Below are positions 5,787 to 35,197 of a stretch of 64,000 nt of DNA, in pieces; positions within the stretch are counted from its first letter, which is position 1; each line of letters begins with the position of its first letter. Position numbers and translations under genes: made by a program. Below the pieces are notes generated by a model, which worked only from the letters and a program-made list of their open reading frames with translations, searched no databases and was not told where the DNA came from. The DNA comes from Candidatus Bathyarchaeota archaeon (GTDB taxonomy: Archaea > Thermoproteota > Bathyarchaeia > TCS64), in contig CAVYLP010000003.1 in assembly GCA_963769425.1 (NCBI GenBank), positions 256,001 through 320,000 of the forward strand, given 5' to 3'.

Positions 5787-6176
5787 ATGGAAATCAAGAC
5801 ACACGAGGAGATTTCGCAGACGCTTGTTGGTATCCCACTAGAGGTCGTGGACGGGGTTAGGGCTGTTGCGGAGCTAACCGCGACTGGTGAGATGGCTGCG
5901 GACTCGACTGGACTCATCCATGGGGGATTCACCTTCGGCCTCGCAGACTACGCCGCGATGCTCGCAGTCAATCACCCGAACGTGGTGCTCGGCCAGGCTC
6001 AAGCGAAGTTCACCGCACCAATCCGTGTCGGTGAGACGATGAAGGCCGAGGCCATTGTCACGAAGAGAGAGGGGAGAAAAAGTGAGGTGAACGTCGAGGT
6101 TAAGGTGGGGGACAGGAAGGTATTCACTGGGTCGTTTACCTGCTATACTCTCGACAAACACGTTCTTGATATATGA
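5787..6176 (+). CDS. PaaI-family hotdog thioesterase
   Basis: GLIHGGFTFGLADYAA motif. Confidence 0.85.
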   Translation: MEIKTHEEISQTLVGIPLEVVDGVRAVAELTATGEMAADSTGLIHGGFTFGLADYAAMLAVNHPNVVLGQAQAKFTAPIRVGETMKAEAIVTKREGRKSEVNVEVKVGDRKVFTGSFTCYTLDKHVLDI

Positions 6177-6255
6177 CTGGAAATCGATGCAAAAAAATAG
6201 GCTAATTCTTTTATATTGCCCGTCGTTAATAGACGGCATTCAGGTGCGATCAAAA

Positions 6256-6636
6256 TTGACAATCGTTATCGACCCCTCAAAGGAAGGTCTCGAAAAAGTC
6301 CTCAGGGACTACCAGATCGAGGCACTGCAGATCATCTGGAACAGCGACAATAAGGGCATGACCTCACGCGAGGTCTACCAGGCGGTCAACAAGTCGCTCG
6401 GGAGTAAGACAATCTCAAGGGCCTCCATAATCAACTTCCTCAACGATATGTGCGACGAGGGAGTCCTGAAGTACGAGGAGGAGACCTGCAAGGGCGGGAC
6501 CCGTAGGAAGTACTTCACCGGACTTGACGAGCTTGGTTTCAAGAAACATGTGGCCAAGGTTGTATTCAAGAGTCTCATGAAGGACTTCCCTGTGCAGACA
6601 AGGGAAGCCGTCGAGGAAGTCATCAACGACAACTAG
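6256..6636 (+). CDS. BlaI/MecI/CopY-like winged-helix transcriptional regulator
   Basis: ALQIIW..MTSREVY..ISRASIINFLNDMCDEGVL wHTH pattern; CAGGTG SD before the TTG start. Confidence 0.7.
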   Translation: MTIVIDPSKEGLEKVLRDYQIEALQIIWNSDNKGMTSREVYQAVNKSLGSKTISRASIINFLNDMCDEGVLKYEEETCKGGTRRKYFTGLDELGFKKHVAKVVFKSLMKDFPVQTREAVEEVINDN

Positions 6637-6687
6637 GCGAGAAAGCCTAAGCTTCTTTTAATCTGTAACATCACTCTTCTCCCAGAT

Positions 6688-6900
6688 ATGCGTATTATCG
6701 TCGACGTCAAGGCCGAGTCCCGGGAGGAGAGCGTGGAGGAGATAGGCGAAGGCCACTACCTTGTGAGGGTTAAGGAGCCCCGCAAGAAGGGGAAGGCGAA
6801 CGTAGCTGTCCTCAAACTGCTGAAGAAGCATCTGGGTAAACAGGTCGCTCTCGTCTCTGGGGCGACTTCGACCACAAAGATCATTGAGGTCGAGGAGTAA
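6688..6900 (+). CDS. DUF167/YggU-family protein
   Basis: VKEPRKKGKAN, LVSGATS. Confidence 0.85.
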   Translation: MRIIVDVKAESREESVEEIGEGHYLVRVKEPRKKGKANVAVLKLLKKHLGKQVALVSGATSTTKIIEVEE

Positions 6901-6933
6901 GGAACTTAAACACAAGAGGGGAAACGTGGAGGC

Positions 6934-7569
6934 ATGACAAAGATAACCGAGCGCATCAGGGGCGTAGCAGTCTCCCTCGCAGACGGCCTCAGCACCATGG
7001 TCTATATACTCAAATGCGAGGGGGGGCTCATTCTTATAGACGTCGGCTTCACCCCCCTCTGCATCGAGAATATCGATGCAGAGCTGCGCGATATGGGGGA
7101 GAAGTGGGACAGCATTAAGCTCATACTCATCACACACGCCCACGGCGACCACATAGAGAACCTCCAAAAGGTCCTCGAACTCACAGGCCACCCAGAGGTG
7201 ATGCTTGGAGCAGGAGACATGGACGCGCTGAAAGAACAGACAGGCGTTGAGGCTGACATGGGTTTAGAGCAAGGCGACATCATCGACGCCTGCGGTGGCA
7301 TAGAAATTATAAACGTACCAGGCCACTCCGAGGGCAACCTTACCTATTATATCCGCGAGGAGAAGGCTATGATAGTCGGGGACACAATCTTCGGCGACGA
7401 TGACGGAAATCTCTACACCCCACCCGCTAAGTACAGTGACGATGCCGAAATGGCGAAACGGGAGATCAAGAAGCTACTCGACTACGATTTCGACAAACTC
7501 CTCCTTGCACATGGTAAGAATATACTTAGAAACGCGAAAGAGGAAGTCGAGAAACTGGCGAACTCCTAA
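6934..7569 (+). CDS. MBL-fold metallohydrolase
   Basis: THAHGDH, PGHS, VGD, AHG. Confidence 0.9.
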   Translation: MTKITERIRGVAVSLADGLSTMVYILKCEGGLILIDVGFTPLCIENIDAELRDMGEKWDSIKLILITHAHGDHIENLQKVLELTGHPEVMLGAGDMDALKEQTGVEADMGLEQGDIIDACGGIEIINVPGHSEGNLTYYIREEKAMIVGDTIFGDDDGNLYTPPAKYSDDAEMAKREIKKLLDYDFDKLLLAHGKNILRNAKEEVEKLANS

Positions 7570-7862
7570 CCGAGCGCAGCTATTACATCTTTGACAACTT
7601 TGCCCGGTTCGAGGCCGAGTTGCTTCGCCTTTGTTGTTGCAGCCTTTATCGGGGCGTTGAGGACATCGTCAAAGGTCTTCACTCCGCTCACGATGGCTGC
7701 AGCGGAGCCGAACTTCTCGGCGGCTTCTATATTGAGGTAACCGCACATGACGTAGCCCTTGGCTCCCTTGATTAGGAGGAGTGGTGGCGCGTTCTCGGGT
7801 AGCGTCGACTTCATCGCCTGGAAAGTTTTACCTCCGATCTCAATCTTCTCGATCTCAAACAT
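7566..7862 (-). CDS. DUF1805/YunC-family protein
   Basis: KGYVMCGYLNIEAAEKFG..AAAIVSGV. Confidence 0.85.
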   Translation of the reverse strand: MFEIEKIEIGGKTFQAMKSTLPENAPPLLLIKGAKGYVMCGYLNIEAAEKFGSAAAIVSGVKTFDDVLNAPIKAATTKAKQLGLEPGKVVKDVIAALG

Positions 7863-8017
7863 ATCTAGTCGATAGATGAGGCTTGGATCTGGAGATTTAA
7901 CCTCTTCGGGGTTAGCCACAGGTGTAAAAACCCATTTTTTTTTATTTATGAACAGTGGCAAAAATTATAGGAACAGGTCCACTGGAGTTGTAGAACTCTT
8001 GAACGACTACATGTTCA

Positions 8018-8254
8018 TCGATTCCTAGTGGCAGGTGCAAAAAGTGATGAATTTCCGGGATACCACCCTACTAGGAATCCACACCCAACCAGCCAGTGAG
8101 CCATACCACCCTACTAGGAATCAGATTCCTAGTGGCAGGTATCAGAGGGTCGAGGTGAGCACTCCGCGATTCCACCCTACTAGGTATGGGATTCCTACCC
8201 ACAGGTGCGAGTCATACCATGCTACTAGGAATCCGGTTCCTAGTGGCAGGAATC
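8018..8254. repeat. Array A: 8 copies of a 20-21 bp pseudo-palindrome GATWCC-N8/9-GGWATC
   Basis: Copies start at 8020, 8059, 8102, 8124, 8168, 8190, 8213, 8235, e.g. GATACCaccctactaGGAATC and GATTCCtagtggcaGGTATC. Confidence 0.9.
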
Positions 8255-8487
8255 CACGCGGGGTTAGTTGCCATGAGGAAATTCCACTATTTAATCGCCC
8301 TAAAGGGACACAGGAAGATCCATTCGGGGCTTTCGCACTATCTATTCACTATAGATACACGAGTTCGCCCTGTAATTTTGATTTTTTTCGCAGCTTTTTA
8401 ACCCCCACTCGTCGAGGTCCAGAACAAATAATAATCGGTTAACTGTTGTTAATTAAAATAGAGCTAAAAAGGCTAGCTTTAAGGAAC

Positions 8488-8724
8488 TCAGCCGGATTTC
8501 GATTTGAACATGGTGAAACCGCAGTTTCCGCATGTGTAGCGGTCACCGTGGTCGGCCATGAAGTATCCGCGCCCACACCTGTTGCAGAAGGGCCTCTTCC
8601 TCTCCAACTTACCGTCCTTGATCTCGTACTTCTTGTAGATCGAGTCGGCGCCCTTCTTCGGCTTCTTCTCAGCCGGTTTCTTATCCGCGGGCTTCTTGCC
8701 CTGTGGTGGTGGTGTTTGAGCCAT
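8488..8724 (-). CDS. rps27ae: 30S ribosomal protein S27ae
   Basis: [22 protein letters not shown]. Confidence 0.95.
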
Positions 8725-9068
8725 TACTTCTTCTCCTCCTCAGGCGCAGCGGGGGCGGCGGCGGTGGCGGGCTTCTCCTCGGCCTTCACGGCCTCCTTCC
8801 CCTTGTTGCGGATGATGATATACTTGGGCTCCACTGCCTCCGCCGTCGCCGCGTCGTTATAGACGTGGGCGAGGCCAGTCGTCACCCTTGTACCAGACTT
8901 CGCCTCCAAGACGCGGACGTAGACGTTATCGAGCTCGGTCCTCATTAGGACCGAGATCTCACGCCTGACATCGGCTCTGCTCGGAGTGGAGGCCTCAGTA
9001 ACCTTGAAGGCTAACTCCTTTCTACCAACCACCTTGTTGATCTTGGTGGATGTTAACTCCAGCTTCAC
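8724..9068 (-). CDS. rps24e: 30S ribosomal protein S24e
   Basis: [13 protein letters not shown]; conserved position in the rpoE-spt4-DUF359-S24e-S27ae operon. Confidence 0.92.
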
Positions 9069-9071
9069 TGT

Positions 9072-9557
9072 CTATTTCATCTCCATTCGGTTGAGGAATC
9101 CCCTCGCCCAGTCCCGCCTCTCGTCGGAAACGGTCACTACAACAAGCCCCTCGTGGGGCTGGCCGTAGGCTATCACCGATCCGATAGGCATCTCAGCCAA
9201 CAGCGGGAGGACCAGGAGGTCCTCTTCACCTTCCACGACTACCGCCACCCGCCTTTTAAGCGTTACCGCGGCCCGGAGGACGAGCCAAGCCTCCGCGTTG
9301 ATCGTCGCCGCCTCGTTGGGGACGTGTATCTCCTTCAAACCATGCTCGACCGGCTCGACTACGGCCCTGAGCGTCTTGCCATCAACCACAACGATATCGG
9401 GGAACAGCCCGGCGCAGATGAGGTTGGCCGCGACGAAGTCCCCGACAACTGCGAGGAGCGGTGGCTTTACCTTGAGCTTCTCCTTGAGACGGACGGCTGT
9501 ATCCTTCGGCTCACCTCGGTAAAGTTCGCCGAGGGGCGTCTTCAACTCGATACGCAT
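9072..9557 (-). CDS. GTP-dependent dephospho-CoA kinase (DUF359)
   Basis: VGD, VDGKTLR, VEGEEDLL, YGQP; operon context. Confidence 0.88.
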   Translation of the reverse strand: MRIELKTPLGELYRGEPKDTAVRLKEKLKVKPPLLAVVGDFVAANLICAGLFPDIVVVDGKTLRAVVEPVEHGLKEIHVPNEAATINAEAWLVLRAAVTLKRRVAVVVEGEEDLLVLPLLAEMPIGSVIAYGQPHEGLVVVTVSDERRDWARGFLNRMEMK

Positions 9558-9609
9558 AGATTCGGGTAGAAGCAGAGTCTTGATCTGGGGGAGGCTTGGA
9601 TCCTTGTTC

Positions 9610-9795
9610 TTAGCGTATCTTGAGGGCGTAACGCCCCGCCTCTTTGATCTTCATCTTCTCAGCCAACTGGCTCTTGGATGGGTCGAGTATGATGACAAAT
9701 CCGAGGAAGTCCTCGCTTAGCTCCGAGCCCTTGCAGACAGGGCAGACGTTCTCGTCGGTAATTATCTTACAAGTTCTGCAGGCTTTGAGTGGCAT
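9610..9795 (-). CDS. spt4: Transcription elongation factor Spt4 (RpoE'')
   Basis: KACRTC..CPVC..GRYALKIR. Confidence 0.93.
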   Translation of the reverse strand: MPLKACRTCKIITDENVCPVCKGSELSEDFLGFVIILDPSKSQLAEKMKIKEAGRYALKIR

Positions 9796-10370
9796 TACTT
9801 CTTCTTCTCCTCCTTGGGGGCATCCATCGCTTTGACCTCTGCGTCGATCCAATCGATCTTGCCGAGCATCGGCTGGCGAGCCGTGACACCGATCTTGCCT
9901 GAGCTCCTGCCCTTGGGGAAACTGACGGCGACCATCCTCACCCTGAAGAGGTCACCCCTCTGAATGGTTCGCCCGCTCTCCTTGCCGAGGAGGATGCCCT
10001 GCCTCTCATCGTAGCTGATGAAGTCATCCATCAACTGGCTGACGTGTAGCAGCGCGTCCACCGGCCCGATCCTGAGGAAGGTACCGAAGTCAGCGACCTC
10101 GACCACCTCGCCCTCAACAATCTCTTGTAGCTGTGGGAAGAAGGTCATGATGCTGAAGGTAACCTGATGGTGTGTCCCACCGTCACCTGGAACGATGCGA
10201 CCTATGGGGTTGACCTCGACCTTGATGACCGAGATGACGTAACCGAGGTCCTCGTCGACGAGCCCCTCGTATTTACCGCGTAGCTCCTCGTAAGCTGCGG
10301 CGTCGAGTGGCTGGCCGAACTTGTTTGGACTTATCCTGATGGTGTCCTTAAGGGTGACTAGGTTGAACAT
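9795..10370 (-). CDS. rpoE1: DNA-directed RNA polymerase subunit E' (Rpo7)
   Basis: GRIVPGDGG and S1 domain GPVDALLHVSQ. Confidence 0.95.
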   Translation of the reverse strand: MFNLVTLKDTIRISPNKFGQPLDAAAYEELRGKYEGLVDEDLGYVISVIKVEVNPIGRIVPGDGGTHHQVTFSIMTFFPQLQEIVEGEVVEVADFGTFLRIGPVDALLHVSQLMDDFISYDERQGILLGKESGRTIQRGDLFRVRMVAVSFPKGRSSGKIGVTARQPMLGKIDWIDAEVKAMDAPKEEKKK

Positions 10371-10420
10371 CGCATCGCCTCAATTTAGCCGGGGTTGATT
10401 CATAAAAACGTTCCTGAAGC

Positions 10421-11146
10421 TCACAGTTCTATGAGCACCTCGAAGGACTCCTTGCTGATGATCTCTCCGAGGTCCTTCTTCCACTCGTCGCCGACGGCAA
10501 CTAGGATGTATATCCCCGCGATGTCGGCGCGCTGGTTCCTTACGAGGTCGACGAGCGCCTTCACGGTCTCTCCGCTGCGGACGACGTCGTCGATGATGAG
10601 TATGCTGTCTTTCTTCTTGAGGGAGGCCTTGGGGACGTACATCGTCTTTCTCATCGCCGAGCCCTTGGGGATGAAGGACTCCTCTAGGAAGTCGTTTATC
10701 CCGACCTCTCTGGTCTCTTTCGCGACTAGGAGGTCCACATCAAGGAGATTGGCGACGAGGGTGGAGACGGGTATGCCGTCCACAGCCGCCGTGAGAACCT
10801 TCGTCACGCGGCGCCCCGCGAACTTCTCCATCGCGTAGTTCGCCATGATCTTTAACCAGGTAATCTCCGCGACGAGGGGCGTGTTGTCGAAGTAACCCTC
10901 CTCGTCGAAGTTGATCCTCTTCTTTAGTTCGGCCTTTATGTCCGTTATTTCCATTAGCTTCTCGTATAGGCCCTGGGCCCTGTCGTAGCTCGGGAGGACG
11001 TGCCCCCTCATGTACCTGCTGAGTATTGGCGGGCTGAGGCCGAGGTAGTCGGATAGTTCTTGATATGTGTGACTCTCGCTCGCGACCTTCAGGAGGTCGG
11101 TGATCATCATTCTATATTTTAGTTCCCGTACCCTCGTCTCTGCCAT
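10421..11146 (-). CDS. HTH + phosphoribosyltransferase-domain protein (PurR-like / APRT family)
   Basis: N-terminal HTH LSRYMRGHVLP; PRPP loop ILIIDDVVRSGET. Confidence 0.85.
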   Translation of the reverse strand: MAETRVRELKYRMMITDLLKVASESHTYQELSDYLGLSPPILSRYMRGHVLPSYDRAQGLYEKLMEITDIKAELKKRINFDEEGYFDNTPLVAEITWLKIMANYAMEKFAGRRVTKVLTAAVDGIPVSTLVANLLDVDLLVAKETREVGINDFLEESFIPKGSAMRKTMYVPKASLKKKDSILIIDDVVRSGETVKALVDLVRNQRADIAGIYILVAVGDEWKKDLGEIISKESFEVLIEL

Positions 11147-11170
11147 TCACATCATCCCCAGCTGGCGGAG

Positions 11171-11263
11171 CGGGCCTGAGGGGATTTGAACCCCTGACCA
11201 ACGGCTCTCTTCGACCCTAAGGTCCTAAAAGGCCGACGCTCTTCCTTGCTGAGCTACAGGCCC
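11171..11263 (-). tRNA. tRNA-Lys(TTT) with a 19-nt intron at 37/38 (11207..11225)
   Basis: GGGCCTG/CAGGCCC acceptor stem, GGTTCAAATCC T-arm, BHB motif CTTT-TAG...GAAG-AGA. Confidence 0.93.
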
Positions 11264-11443: not shown

Positions 11444-11537
11444 GCGGTCGTAGTCCAGCCTGGTAGGACGCCAGCCCCCCACGAGTGTTTCTCGGGGAAA
11501 GTTGGTGACCCGGGTCCAATTCCCGGCGACCGCACCA
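11444..11537 (+). tRNA. tRNA-Gly(CCC) with an 18-nt intron (11482..11499), encoded CCA, atypical C33 and C55
   Basis: GCGGTCG/CGACCGC acceptor stem, ACCA end, BHB motif CCCC-CAC...GGGG-AAA. Confidence 0.85.
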
Positions 11538-27998: not shown

Positions 27999-28274
27999 TT
28001 AGACCCCTTGCTCGATTAACTGCCTAAGCGCGGCAACCTCGCCCTTCAACTCGCTAAGTTCCGCGTCCCTCAATAATGGGGTAGCTACGCCGACAGCCGA
28101 CACGATAACACGGCCCAAACCCATTTTCTCAGTATTCGCGCTATTCTTCAGATACAACTTTGTGAATGCTATATGGCAAACCTCATCAAGATAAAGCAAT
28201 AATGACGCCCTATCAAGACTCGGCTTATCACGCAACTTCTCAAGGAATACCTTGGGCTTTTCAACCGCAACCAA
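27999..28274 (-). CDS. Hypothetical protein with a C-terminal coiled coil
   Basis: 91-aa ORF ending ELSELKGEVAALRQLIE. Confidence 0.5.
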   Translation of the reverse strand: MVAVEKPKVFLEKLRDKPSLDRASLLLYLDEVCHIAFTKLYLKNSANTEKMGLGRVIVSAVGVATPLLRDAELSELKGEVAALRQLIEQGV

Positions 28275-28373
28275 CTCAGTAAAATTTACAGGCGGAAATA
28301 CCTTACATATTTAGATGTGTCGATGCATGGCGGCCAGGCGTTGCCTCCCCGCGTTAGGATGTAAGTGATAGAA

Positions 28374-28739
28374 CTATGGGATATGCAATGTTTGAATCCT
28401 ATTATGTTTCTTTATCTCATCCTGTGTTTTGTTTTCTTTATCTGCTTTTTTTTGGCAATCATCTTCGTAGAGATATGCTCCTAAAATATTCACTGATTTG
28501 TATTTCACCCCATTCTTGTTAAGCTCATCTTGTTTCTTATTTCTGAATTCTCTTATTGCTCTATCAGTGTATTTCGCGTCTTCCGGTTTAGTGCGGAATA
28601 GAACCAATTTTATTTCAATATACTCGCATTCTGTGATAGATTCCTCAATTGGTTTATCTTGGTAAATGATTTTATAGGGTATCCAATATTTGAATAGTTC
28701 ACCCTCTAAAATGTTATCCGATGTTCTCTTTCCACTCAT
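28374..28739 (-). CDS. Hypothetical protein
   Basis: 121-aa ORF in AT-rich DNA. Confidence 0.55.
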   Translation of the reverse strand: MSGKRTSDNILEGELFKYWIPYKIIYQDKPIEESITECEYIEIKLVLFRTKPEDAKYTDRAIREFRNKKQDELNKNGVKYKSVNILGAYLYEDDCQKKADKENKTQDEIKKHNRIQTLHIP

Positions 28740-28828
28740 CTCAGGTCGATTAAGGTTTATCAGTCAATGGAGATTAAATTTTCTGTTAGGCGTGTTTAAT
28801 CTCAAATTTTCCATCCGTGGGCGTAAAT

Positions 28829-29053
28829 TCAAGAAAAGGGATTCCAACTTTTCTTCTCTTTACATCTATGATTTTCAGGTATATGGTGCGAAGAACACAA
28901 CACTTTACCGCATTTATGACACTTGTAGGCATTCTCAGATTTAGTTTGCATAAACCGTTTACCACAAAAACTACATCTAAGATAATGGTCACCCTTGATG
29001 GTATTCGACGTATTTGATTTACTAGTTTTTTTAAACCAATTTAGCGGATTCAT
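28829..29053 (-). CDS. AN1-type zinc finger protein
   Basis: CSFC..CHKCGKVLCSSHHIPENHRC matches the AN1 Cys/His pattern. Confidence 0.8.
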   Translation of the reverse strand: MNPLNWFKKTSKSNTSNTIKGDHYLRCSFCGKRFMQTKSENAYKCHKCGKVLCSSHHIPENHRCKEKKSWNPFS

Positions 29054-29068
29054 ATCCCCGCCACAAAA

Positions 29069-29626
29069 CGAGAACTGTCAATTTAATATTTGAAACCTTG
29101 GCGAGCGAGCGCACCCGATCCTCATCATGATAGTCTATTAATAAATTTTTAATATAAATGGAGTTCTAAATAAAAAAAGAGGATAGTATTGAATCTTAAT
29201 TCTATTATTTTTCCGACTGTTATCGTAGTTATATGTGTTGCCCTCCACGAATTAGGTCATTTTACAATGGCTAAATACTTTAAAAGATCAGCATGGTTTA
29301 GAGTAGGAAAAGTAAAAGGTATCCCTGCCATCATCACGTCTCATAAAAGAGAATTTGAGATTCATACTTATGTAGATTTGAAAAGGGCATTTAAAGAAGA
29401 GATTAAAATAACTCAAGCAGGTCTTCTAAGTGTAGTTTTACCACTATTCTTAATTTGTCTTTATCCCGCATTCTGGCAATTCTTTTTTATTGTCATCTTA
29501 CTTTTTATGATTTATACTATTTGGGAAATAGAATTTATAATTAATATCGAAGTCGAAAAAATTGAGAAATATAGTCTTTTCTGAATATTTGCATTAAGGC
29601 GAGAACTGTAAATTTAATATTTGAAA
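29069..29626 (+). repeat. 27-bp direct repeat pair (29069..29095 and 29600..29626)
   Basis: CGAGAACTGT(C/A)AATTTAATATTTGAAA, one mismatch. Confidence 0.85.
29189..29584 (+). CDS. Small M50-like membrane zinc-peptidase-type protein
   Basis: TM segment followed by HELGH; later AG plus TM segments. Confidence 0.6.
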   Translation: MNLNSIIFPTVIVVICVALHELGHFTMAKYFKRSAWFRVGKVKGIPAIITSHKREFEIHTYVDLKRAFKEEIKITQAGLLSVVLPLFLICLYPAFWQFFFIVILLFMIYTIWEIEFIINIEVEKIEKYSLF

Positions 29627-29640
29627 TTTAGTACATATTG

Positions 29641-30177
29641 TTAAGCGAATAGTAAGGAAGGGTAGAAATAATAACTCCAATAGTTTATGCCAATTAAAAT
29701 AATGCTTAATATAATTAACATATAGAATGGTTTATGATCATTAAATATTCTAGCCATATAGTTTCTCCATCGCATTTTGAGTTCTGGTTTATTCTTATAT
29801 TTCCCAGTTCTTTGAGAAAACTCAGAGGCCGCTCTTTTTAAAAGATATAGTTGACTAAAATCGTAATTATCTGAATATTTTCCTTTTTTGCTCTCCTCTT
29901 TATTCGCTTCTATAAATCCTTCCCCAGTATATGTTTTAACATACATAACTGCCTCAATAAGGATTGAATAGTATCCTGCTCTGAGTAAAAAATAAGTCAT
30001 ACTTAAAAGAGACATCAATATAAACACAAAGAAGTTAAAATGAAAAGTGCTTATTATATCCCGCGCACCTAAAAGGGCTATTACTGTAGCTACCAAATAG
30101 CCAATATGAGCATGACTTTTTTGAGTAAACAAATTAATTAAAGTTGATCGAGTATTTTCTAATTCGTCCGCTACCAT
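29641..30177 (-). CDS. Hypothetical membrane protein
   Basis: 178 aa, three hydrophobic segments. Confidence 0.6.
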   Translation of the reverse strand: MVADELENTRSTLINLFTQKSHAHIGYLVATVIALLGARDIISTFHFNFFVFILMSLLSMTYFLLRAGYYSILIEAVMYVKTYTGEGFIEANKEESKKGKYSDNYDFSQLYLLKRAASEFSQRTGKYKNKPELKMRWRNYMARIFNDHKPFYMLIILSIILIGINYWSYYFYPSLLFA

Positions 30178-30365
30178 AATGTTTCAAATACAAGTTAATT
30201 ATTAAAAATTATCGGGCATCGGGGTCGAGATATAACATCTCCCAAAGAGTGGCCCCGGCGTCCTCCATTTACTAAAAATGATGCGCGCGCGCCGAGGTGG
30301 CAGCGGCTCTCTGATACAACTCGATCGAGGAGAGTTCCGGGTGGGTGCTCATGAAACTAGGGGGC

Positions 30366-33981: not shown

Positions 33982-34388
33982 GGATGAACCTCAAATGATC
34001 CCTCAACGGGAACTGATTTAACATTTTCTAGGGTTGAGACGTGCGGGAACATATTGTAAATACAGTCAGGCTATGATATTGCCATGTTCATGTTTCTAAC
34101 GATATAAAAGTAAGTCAAGACCATCAATCATCCAAAGCACCCTGAACCTAGACCCAATCCGACTGAATTTCCATCAGCCTTCTCCGGTAAGGTTGGTAAG
34201 TATGAATCGGCGCGTTTTTCAAGTCTCCCCCATGATGGTAGCATAGTATAAGCGTTTTACAGAATAGCTTAATGACTCCTCACCGGTCCTTTGCGATGAT
34301 TCATCTGAGATTGAGTTCACCCGTATGGGTATCGACTGGAGAAGTGGAGGTTCGTTGGGTGGAGTAACATGTTTGCTGGTTGGTCGCG

Positions 34389-34742
34389 TATGCCTCGCTG
34401 GTAGGAATAAGGAAAAACATCACTTTTTGCACCTGCCACTAGGAATCGAGACTCGTTACGCTAACCAACAGTTGGTCTGTGGTACACAGTAAGGGGGTAC
34501 AACGGTACCCGGTAGGAGGGTACTTGGTACCATGTAGGAGGGCACCGACGGTACCCAGTAGGGTGGTACCATGGTACCCTGTAGCGTGGAACCGGCGCAC
34601 GGGATCTGTGTAACATGGTACCATGTAGCAGGGAACTCGATACCACGTAGTATGGTATATGGTACCCTGTAGGGTGGTACGGGGGACCCATTAGGGGGGT
34701 ATAAGGTTTTTTCCACGTCTCGGTACCATGTAGCAGGGTACA
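34389..34742. repeat. Array B: about 12 copies of a 20-21 bp motif, mostly GGTACC-nnGTAGnnn-GGTACN
   Basis: Copies start at 34389, 34428, 34481, 34504, 34526, 34550, 34573, 34617, 34639, 34661, 34683, 34722. Confidence 0.92.
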
Positions 34743-35121
34743 GCGTGTTTTACGCCTCCTTTTGCTCTTCCTAGTGAAGATAAATCTTCGTTTGGAGGAG
34801 GACTGCTGAGACATTCAGGCTATGTGCGAGGCGGTCTGGGCCTCCTCTACTGGTGTCGTTCAAGATGGTTCTTTTCGCTCCCATGGCTAGTTGATGCCTT
34901 GCCTTGGGGCATGTAGAAAACTCATGGGATTTGCTCCTGCAGCAGGGAATATTGTGTGTAAGGATGGTGGTGAGCCGCTATGCTGGTATCCTTCTTTCTT
35001 CAGGGTAGGGGGTAGATGGATGGGGTATTCAACATGATTTCAAAGAGGAAACAGAAGCGTATACCGGCGACTTCTAATTTAACCTTGGAAAGTTGACTTT
35101 TACAGGTAAAAATCGGGGATT

Positions 35122-35152
35122 GTTCGTTTAGTGTCGAGAAACAATTCGACAC
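35122..35152 (+). promoter_or_regulatory. Putative operator upstream of the thiolase
   Basis: GTTCGTttagTGTCGAgaaacaatTCGACAC, immediately before a TATA-like TTCTTAA. Confidence 0.5.
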
Positions 35153-35197
35153 AATTCTTAACCCAAACGCCGACGGAGGTCAACCTAGGCGTAGGGC

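Follow-up and report, generated by a model that had tools for sequence, protein, structure and literature searches.

Comparison of a short cluster of palindromic sites (Array A) with the genome around it uncovered a family of dispersed repeat arrays that are linked to a small protein family (S), to an ATPase-acetyltransferase fusion protein (X), and to a large terminase (TerL), and identified Array A as an insertion into the spacer between the genes for ribosomal protein S27ae and a DUF1805 protein. The window, i.e., the whole stretch of 64,000 nt that was analysed, covers C3:256001-320000 of G000, a 91% complete Bathyarchaeia metagenome-assembled genome (MAG) of 2.55 Mb in six contigs. The arrays are best read, from their sequences, as amplified and dispersed relics of a cis-element upstream of S-terminase genes, and Array A would then be a decayed, inserted copy of a lineage-specific mosaic repeat. 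Whether Array A is an S-binding array derived from a virus control region is, in our judgement, an even call.

Array A consists of eight ~21-bp units with starts at 8020, 8059, 8102, 8124, 8168, 8190, 8213, and 8235, and from 8059 onwards all starts fall within 1 bp of a 22-bp lattice. Both the eight positions and the ~22-bp lattice had been recognised correctly in a first-pass annotation of the sequence, as had the AT-rich tracts on both sides. The consensus proposed there, GATWCC-N8/9-GGWATC, is exact at two of the eight units (8059 and 8124) but too strict for the remainder, including the units at 8020 and 8190, in which the right arm is missing; a looser TWCC-N8/9-GGWA fits six of the eight. 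The alternation of 21-mers and 20-mers described earlier holds as to position, but the two are essentially one unit type in opposite orientations, the 21-mers (R) being near-identical to the 20-mers (F) on the other strand. The units therefore follow one another as F, R, R-F, R-F, R-F, and the three 21+1+20 pairs are imperfect palindromes of ~42 bp. The two lattice slots that are skipped (8080-8101 and 8144-8167), earlier taken to be empty (at ~8081 and ~8146), are in fact linkers conserved between copies. The motif TWCC-N9-GGWA occurs 13 times in the window, compared with 3.3 ± 1.6 in shuffles, none of 100 of which reached 13; Array A accounts for four of these matches and another array, at 34.5 kb, for seven. 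The shorter TWCC-N8-GGWA alone is not significant (7 in the window, 3.4 ± 1.75 in shuffles, reached by 4 of 100).

Table 1 Features of Array A and its surroundings, in window positions
Feature	Position	Strand	Basis
Host gene: DUF1805 protein	7566..7865	-	PF08827, E 1.7e-21
Second, degenerate copy of the head module, then a T-run; approximate left edge of the inserted block	7913..7950	+	Repeat search, head variants of G002 and C4:352
Possible 3′-end scrap of the ATPase-GNAT gene X (tentative)	7975..8018	+	Reads V-H-W-S-C-R, cf. ...LYWCRD of intact X
Head module: unit F1 8020-8039 (right arm degenerate) and conserved A-rich/GTGATG stretch	8019..8050	+	Copy comparison
Unit R1, 21 nt, CTAC core on the + strand	8059..8079	+	Exact fit to the first-pass consensus
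Linker 1	8080..8101	+	Conserved among copies
Pair R2 (8102-8122) and F2 (8124-8143), 42-bp imperfect palindrome	8102..8143	+	Inverted repeat
Linker 2	8144..8167	+	Conserved among copies
117-bp stretch variable between strains	8144..8260		Metagenome contigs, joint 8143->8261
Pair R3 (8168-8188) and F3 (8190-8209; core and right arm degenerate)	8168..8209	+	Repeat search
Pair R4 (8213-8233) and F4 (8235-8254)	8213..8254	+	Inverted repeat
Tail module with start codon (8273) and first three codons (M-R-K) of a decayed S	8255..8284	+	Copy alignment
Host gene: ribosomal protein S27ae, last of the row rpoE'-spt4-DUF359-S24e-S27ae	8488..8724	-	ORF and domain scan

The nine ORFs around Array A (5787-11146) encode, among others, the DUF1805 protein, an MBL-fold protein, a winged helix-turn-helix protein, S27ae, S24e, DUF359, and Rpo7, and no cdc6, par, or cas gene was seen among the genes scanned there, in agreement with the first-pass annotation. 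Array A is not a CRISPR array, as had also been noted: its units alternate in orientation, and the gaps between them measure 1-24 nt and are conserved between copies. Rfam searches of the whole window at gathering thresholds returned tRNA only, and the array matches no family. A 135-aa ORF across Array A (8035-8442) was rejected as a gene since the copies differ by a 43-bp indel and array-spanning ORFs are repeat-coded; the GTGATGA in the head was likewise discarded as a sign of a C/D-box sRNA, the other copies having no matching D box by eye. Further along the window lie two tRNA genes of 94 nt each, probably intron-bearing, at 11170-11263 (-) and 11444-11537 (+), for one of which ARAGORN named no anticodon.

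A BLAST search with positions 7800-8500 showed that 8019-8282 (264 bp) recurs at C3:378738-378999 with 93.6% identity, and homology of Array A to the other copies stops at 8282. Partial copies are present on C1, C2, C3, C4, and C6, five of the six contigs. The opening 16-mer of the array has 13 exact matches in G000 (76 at ≤3 mismatches, compared with 21 for the reversed control), and the head module starts 11-12 elements of the genome (12 matches at ≤4 mismatches, ~10 of them convincing). When a unit is defined by its core alone (CC-NN-GT-R-G-N2-3-GG), G000 contains 23 arrays of at least three units (147 units) at a clustering gap of 70 bp, and 26 at a gap of 120 bp. Many of these are unidirectional, with 7-12 units repeating every 21-24 bp; the core is common to the arrays and the arms vary (GATTCC, GGTACC, TGTTCC, TCTTCC, GATCC). 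The arrays are mosaics of modules, their units facing either way, and show the REP/BIME trait of palindromic units combined with few linker types. Beside the arrays no protein family recurs except S, X, and TerL, the other recurrent ORFs being repeat-coded. The ends are ragged and variable among copies, and neither terminal inverted repeats nor target-site duplications were identifiable, the relatives' empty sites being too diverged for a clear comparison. The first-pass annotation had named a known MITE among the findings that would speak against its proposal; what was found comes close to this in spirit only, namely an undescribed repeat with dispersed copies.

The second array of the window (Array B) belongs to the same family, with about ten forward units carrying GGTACC arms at 34480-34745 and a head in reverse at 34420-34452. 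It is adjoined on the - strand, down to ~34160, by a module of ~250 bp that terminates in another decayed S start; further copies of this module lie at C3:176588-176827 (94%) and, in part, at C4:318916-319078. A convincing gene is absent from 33982-35197 around it.

The repeat is lineage-specific. A scan of the genome and its relatives for the motif, suggested by the first-pass annotation, returned 45 strict matches in G000 with 0 control matches and 0-2 matches in each of 150 other genomes of the class, counts to be read knowing that the relatives are mostly fragmented short-read MAGs in which arrays may be under-assembled. With the whole element as query, weak matches were obtained in one of 40 relatives (G002, same genus), whose loci resemble the G000 arrays in architecture and are diverged in sequence. 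Synteny of S27ae and DUF1805 is retained in 13 same-genus relatives. The spacer between the two genes measures 625 nt and holds seven unit-core matches in G000; in the relatives it measures 46-194 nt (10 of 13) or 417-456 nt with unrelated inserts (3 of 13). None of the 13 orthologous spacers carries an array (no unit-core match in 12, a single one in the other), and Array A is therefore an insertion. The relatives' empty spacers end around 7913-7950. In one contig from each of three metagenome runs (close strains) positions 8144-8260 are missing and replaced by five other letters; all three contigs run on into the S27ae gene and so represent the same locus, and the 117-bp loss therefore shows that module number varies between strains. 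The X4 contig of a more distant relative, with an apparent skip of 7908-8494, was left out of this count.

The arrays run into the start codon of the S family, whose members are small (75-130 aa), basic, and helical. Array tails end in ATG-AGG-AAA (8273 in Array A), and better-preserved copies continue M-R-K-Y-V-F-T-E-I-E-R-R-R-L. Recognisable S starts follow the arrays at C1:184, C1:235, C3:227, C3:378, C6:641, C6:762, and C4:352, and in these seven arrays the CTAC strand is the S sense strand. An S-like start stands at only 7 of 26 arrays, and the loose peptide test used for this count also fired in 32 of 300 random windows. Four intact S paralogues of 79, 86, 92, and 130 aa are encoded in G000 (among them the 92-aa copy at C4:351845-352123 and the 79-aa copy at C2:94954-95193), along with several truncated or stop-ridden copies. 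A profile search of 1.84 billion representatives recovered 164 clusters at E≤1e-3, 45 of them at E≤1e-10. Within the class S was found in 56 of 301 genomes, and within its own family in 37 of 70, often in several copies per genome and commonly with in-frame stops. Among named records, searched with a 7-row alignment as query, 14 of 15 matches are Bathyarchaeota/Bathyarchaeia MAGs or an uncultured archaeon, and one is labelled Patescibacteria.

Searches of S against Pfam gave no match (best Terminase_7 at E 0.05, below the cut-off), and PHROGs gave none. Foldseek against pdb and BFVD returned nothing at E≤0.001, the best VIA-align hit had a Z of 4.7, and the AlphaFold2 model, with an unstructured N-terminus followed by three helices, has a pLDDT of only 69.6. 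A word-based search returned the protein itself alone, the ESM Atlas no usable match, and a PDB profile search rows at chance level. Sequence comparison nevertheless indicates that S is a real, widespread family despite the lack of a Pfam or PHROG match. The predicted S homodimer scores 0.70 against 0.00 for the best control; of 30 proteins solved as pairs, 20 attained this mark, and of 23 solved as single chains, one did. Contacts agree between the runs to at least 92% at a pLDDT of at least 73, and residues 1-7 of both chains lie in the interface. S is thus a predicted dimer, and the model supports binding rather than showing it. A ribbon-helix-helix fold is a guess from the model that no database match backs. 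At three loci in other genomes (L097, L099, and L102 of G101, G127, and G232), S follows a different, T-rich conserved leader that starts right past a tRNA gene or the end of a host gene; the leader at tRNA genes suggests integration of an S-carrying element there.

The second recurrent neighbour is TerL. G000 has a single intact TerL (Terminase_6N/6C; phrog_2 at 4e-34), on contig C2, with the 79-aa S ~180 bp upstream of it; no array is present upstream of this intact S-TerL pair. A TerL scrap directly follows the array at C3:227 (C3:227495-227692, 70% identity over residues 46-125). For other genomes, 28 of 79 candidate ORFs were scanned, from 19 loci: TerL directly follows S in nine of these loci, and X is found upstream of S in nine. 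The corresponding counts for 15 named Bathyarchaeota loci are four and six. As at virus pac/cos packaging sites, the position of the family is directly upstream of, or at the start of, a small gene preceding TerL (S-TerL at C2 and C3:227 in G000, 9 of 19, and 4 of 15 loci); Array A itself holds the first three S codons only, and no TerL. X is a ~490-aa fusion of an ABC-type ATPase and a GNAT acetyltransferase, ending in ...SQSKAYLYWCRDW.

In related genomes the intact modules comprise tail genes, X, sometimes a short gene Y, one palindrome, S, and TerL. All three extended loci encode Laminin_G_3 proteins of 856-1008 aa and small ORFs upstream of X, and one of them a tail-tube match below the cut-off; these loci are tailed-provirus gene clusters. 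The conserved module occupies L125:10903-18275, L126:3231-10001, and L127:965-7597, in the order Laminin_G_3, ~130-aa ORF, X, (Y), palindrome, S, TerL, with TerL at the cluster end. It is unusual for a fusion of ATPase and acetyltransferase to stand immediately before packaging genes, and no description of such a case was found. The module's TerL type has a patchy distribution, being present in 35 of the family's 71 genomes and, within the genus, in 5 of 17 others; such a pattern fits a temperate virus rather than a gene of the host. Tail genes and an intact X are both missing from G000, where X survives solely as C-terminal scraps beside four arrays, and no HK97-type capsid (PF05065) was found in it. 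In 40 IMG/VR contigs with a related TerL (29-44% identity) there was no S homologue (best E 0.18) and no comparable array; a pattern scan of viral contigs for S gave nothing, and a complete related virus genome was not found.

Tailed viruses and proviruses of Bathyarchaeia that carry a large terminase are in print as Fuxivirus and Kunpengvirus (PMC10848311); they resemble the clusters described here in host class, tail, and terminase but differ in that the passages on such viruses considered from that paper mention neither the X-S-TerL module nor such arrays. A literature search on palindromic intergenic repeats of Bathyarchaeia brought up only work on defence systems.

Two further loci of G000 may be mentioned here. 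Between the 79-aa S and TerL (C2:94770-94954; L034:4661-5203, - strand), a coiled-coil-like frame lies in another frame of a 180-aa ORF overlapping S; it resembles a 175-aa ORF before the 130-aa S at C3:131439-131966 and may be a frameshifted or shuffled Y gene. At C6:24127-25401 a second, distant TerL-like frame aligns with the module's TerL along almost the entire length at 29% identity, so at least one other virus remnant is present in G000.

In other genomes the interval between X (or Y) and S usually holds a single palindrome, whose arms vary by genome and whose centre is (G)CTAC or GGTWACC. Under a strict test, only 6 of 29 loci had a hairpin-forming repeat with a central CTAC in the 170 nt preceding S (controls: 1 of 29 on the other strand, 1 in the region further upstream, shuffles with a mean of 0.45 and a maximum of 4), and looser versions were seen by eye in several more. 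G006, the closest relative to retain an intact module, carries one palindrome and lacks an array, so the arrays of G000 look like an amplification of the palindrome. In the X-Y-S-TerL modules the palindrome occupies a gap of ~75 nt with no visible TATA-like box or promoter. Solo S genes have a TATA-like box with short repeats on either side, an arrangement more in keeping with an operator than with a packaging site.

On the favoured reading, the repeat stems from the non-coding stretch before the DNA-packaging genes of a head-tailed Bathyarchaeia virus. The palindrome of that stretch would have been multiplied into arrays of ~21-23-bp units in G000, and in diverged form in one congener, and the array would have spread to about two dozen loci along with scraps of X and S (an X-end/array/S-start junction). 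The candidate site travels with the start of the S gene and changes along with it, which is most simply explained by a site that S binds; on the sequence and model evidence, the units are probably S-binding sites of a pac/cos-like or operator kind. Each unit would be recognised by an S dimer, making the array a cooperative S-binding platform that in the virus either marks DNA for the terminase (pac/cos-type) or controls S and TerL expression. We divide our support about equally between these two roles, recognition for packaging and control of transcription. A pac/cos-type role is favoured by the position of the site upstream of S-TerL and behind tail genes, with no visible promoter in the ~75-nt gap. 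Against it, S has no small-terminase family match and, at 75-100 aa, is shorter than is usual for small terminases, and the unidirectional arrays start at a TATA-like box. Array A, with its S gene lost and its place in a spacer of host ribosomal-protein genes, is most likely a relic and could act only in trans, with S supplied by one of the four intact S genes or by an infecting virus. The favoured reading offers no reason for the multiplication of this junction in preference to other parts of the virus.

Several known systems share parts of this arrangement. [quoted passage not shown] The small terminase of SF6 is described in the same source as not binding specifically to the pac repeats, which speaks against the S-binding analogy (PMC4737164). 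The units described here differ in being ~21-bp pseudo-palindromes in arrays of up to 12 instead of three direct-repeat pairs, S has no sequence or fold link to small terminases, and the arrays are scattered over a host chromosome. In lambda, the cos region (cosN and the cosB R sites, to which gpNu1 binds) immediately precedes the two terminase genes, small and large. It is similar in combining a partly symmetric site with several small-subunit sites in both orientations behind the last late genes; here there are far more units, with copies outside the virus. Small dimeric repressors or centromere-binding proteins with iterated sites (omega of pSM19035, ParG/parH, Arc, MetJ) offer a third parallel, with direct and inverted short repeats directly upstream of the gene for a small (here predicted) dimer. 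They differ in that a ParA-type partner is lacking among the genes scanned here (5787-11146), and the ribbon-helix-helix fold is in the case of S a guess.

Cis-acting sites of archaeal viruses are almost unknown, and for Bathyarchaeia, in which no virus and host have been cultured together, none has been described; S and the units offer a concrete candidate protein-site pair, accessible with a 92-residue protein and synthetic DNA. The succession of ATPase-GNAT fusion, palindrome, S, and large terminase would be a previously unremarked conserved provirus module of the class, and it would be a virus control region, not a transposon end, that was multiplied over the host chromosome. If the arrays are relics, they may serve as markers of past infections and of strain-level variation in metagenomes.

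A rather unlikely alternative is that the units act as RNA or single-stranded DNA hairpins, i.e., as stems of the leader or the intercistronic S-TerL mRNA whose CUAC-containing loop is bound by a protein, the binder perhaps being the arginine-rich N-terminus of S and the outcome perhaps control of translation, processing, or read-through. Palindrome arms that differ completely across genomes yet stay complementary, around a centre that keeps (G)CTAC, would fit such a role, but the half-sites of a protein-bound palindrome co-vary too, so this covariation is not decisive. The strand bias points the same way: in the strict test CTAC lies on the S sense strand in six loci and on the other in one, and it is on the sense strand in the unidirectional arrays that retain an S start. 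The palindrome, in a short gap without a TATA-like box, is probably co-transcribed. Folding of Array A's + strand is more favourable than that of shuffled sequences (-100.4 kcal/mol, z -4.5, equalled by 0 of 200), although a stretch rich in palindromes folds well by construction. Within G000 the arms are hardly more complementary than chance would give (373 Watson-Crick cells out of 882, 345.7 ± 11.9 when shuffled, maximum 386), over half of the units leave the central W-W position unpaired, both orientations are mixed in Array A, and Rfam offers no match. An "RNA sponge" was dropped as the lead reading on account of this weak hairpin covariation inside G000.

The arrays may instead be a selfish, non-autonomous repeat of MITE, REP, or BIME type with no present function that would have spread through transposition or recombination, their likeness to virus DNA reflecting origin only. 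This is unlikely in our view, and overlaps with the S-binding reading rather than excluding it. Many intergenic copies, mosaic modules in both orientations, insertion polymorphism between species, module-number polymorphism between strains, and the decay of adjacent gene scraps all agree with it. The ragged borders without identified terminal inverted repeats or target-site duplications do not, nor does the restriction of recurrent neighbours to the S, X, and TerL families, and no Y1 transposase (RAYT/IS200-type, PF01797) was found in the 91% complete G000 when control genomes matched. The REP/BIME elements of enterobacteria are imperfect palindromes of alternating orientation, with few linker types, in many extragenic copies per genome; the arrays share with them the mosaic of palindromic units and conserved linkers in extragenic DNA, and differ in that no RAYT-type Y1 transposase was found, in numbering ~25 copies instead of hundreds, and in carrying virus-gene scraps in their flanks.

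An improbable reading takes the units as multiplied promoter-proximal elements, in which a stretch immediately downstream of the S promoter's TATA-like box underwent tandem duplication. An array would then consist of stacked promoter or operator pieces and hold no packaging site. In S sense, the unidirectional arrays open with an A-run and then a TTATA-like box joined to the first unit; at G002:C49 and at the second locus of the window a TATA-like box is followed directly by GCTACC, a Shine-Dalgarno-like GGAGG, and then S; and the box of solo S genes is flanked by short repeats. However, promoter motifs of Bathyarchaeia are not established, the TATA boxes were read by eye, and no promoter is visible at the palindrome of the virus modules.

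Highly doubtful is the proposal that the arrays are working pac/cos-type packaging-initiation sites at some twenty chromosomal places. If they were, a tailed virus, or the host's S with the lone terminase, would package host DNA from many points and channel it into virions, which would amount to a built-in system resembling lateral transduction or a gene-transfer agent in an uncultured archaeal lineage.

The cooperative protein-binding platform of the first-pass annotation survives in part: a binding-site array is plausible and is the reading favoured here, but the origin, centromere, or nucleoid roles proposed for it are unsupported. Two-helical-turn spacing, many adjacent sites, and AT-rich flanks suggested a chromosomal platform of this type, and the arrays do precede S genes or S scraps, which would be centromere-like if S binds them; it is nonetheless extremely improbable given 23-26 arrays, an array-free orthologous spacer in 13 relatives, no initiator gene among the neighbours and a sole Cdc6_C match on another contig (C1:24396-24674), no ParA/ParB- or SegAB-type domain in the nine ORFs, and no clear turn of GC skew at 8 kb.

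Paralogous winged-helix proteins are encoded 0.5-1.5 kb from two arrays, at window 6166-6636 (+) and C4:352667-353035, with weak Penicillinase_R/PadR/Cdc6_C-type matches (E 0.003-0.03); this may be a coincidence. Window positions 28000-30300 form an AT-rich island (GC 0.26-0.40, compared with ~0.58 around it) with three ORFs of 121-178 aa, and may be foreign DNA.
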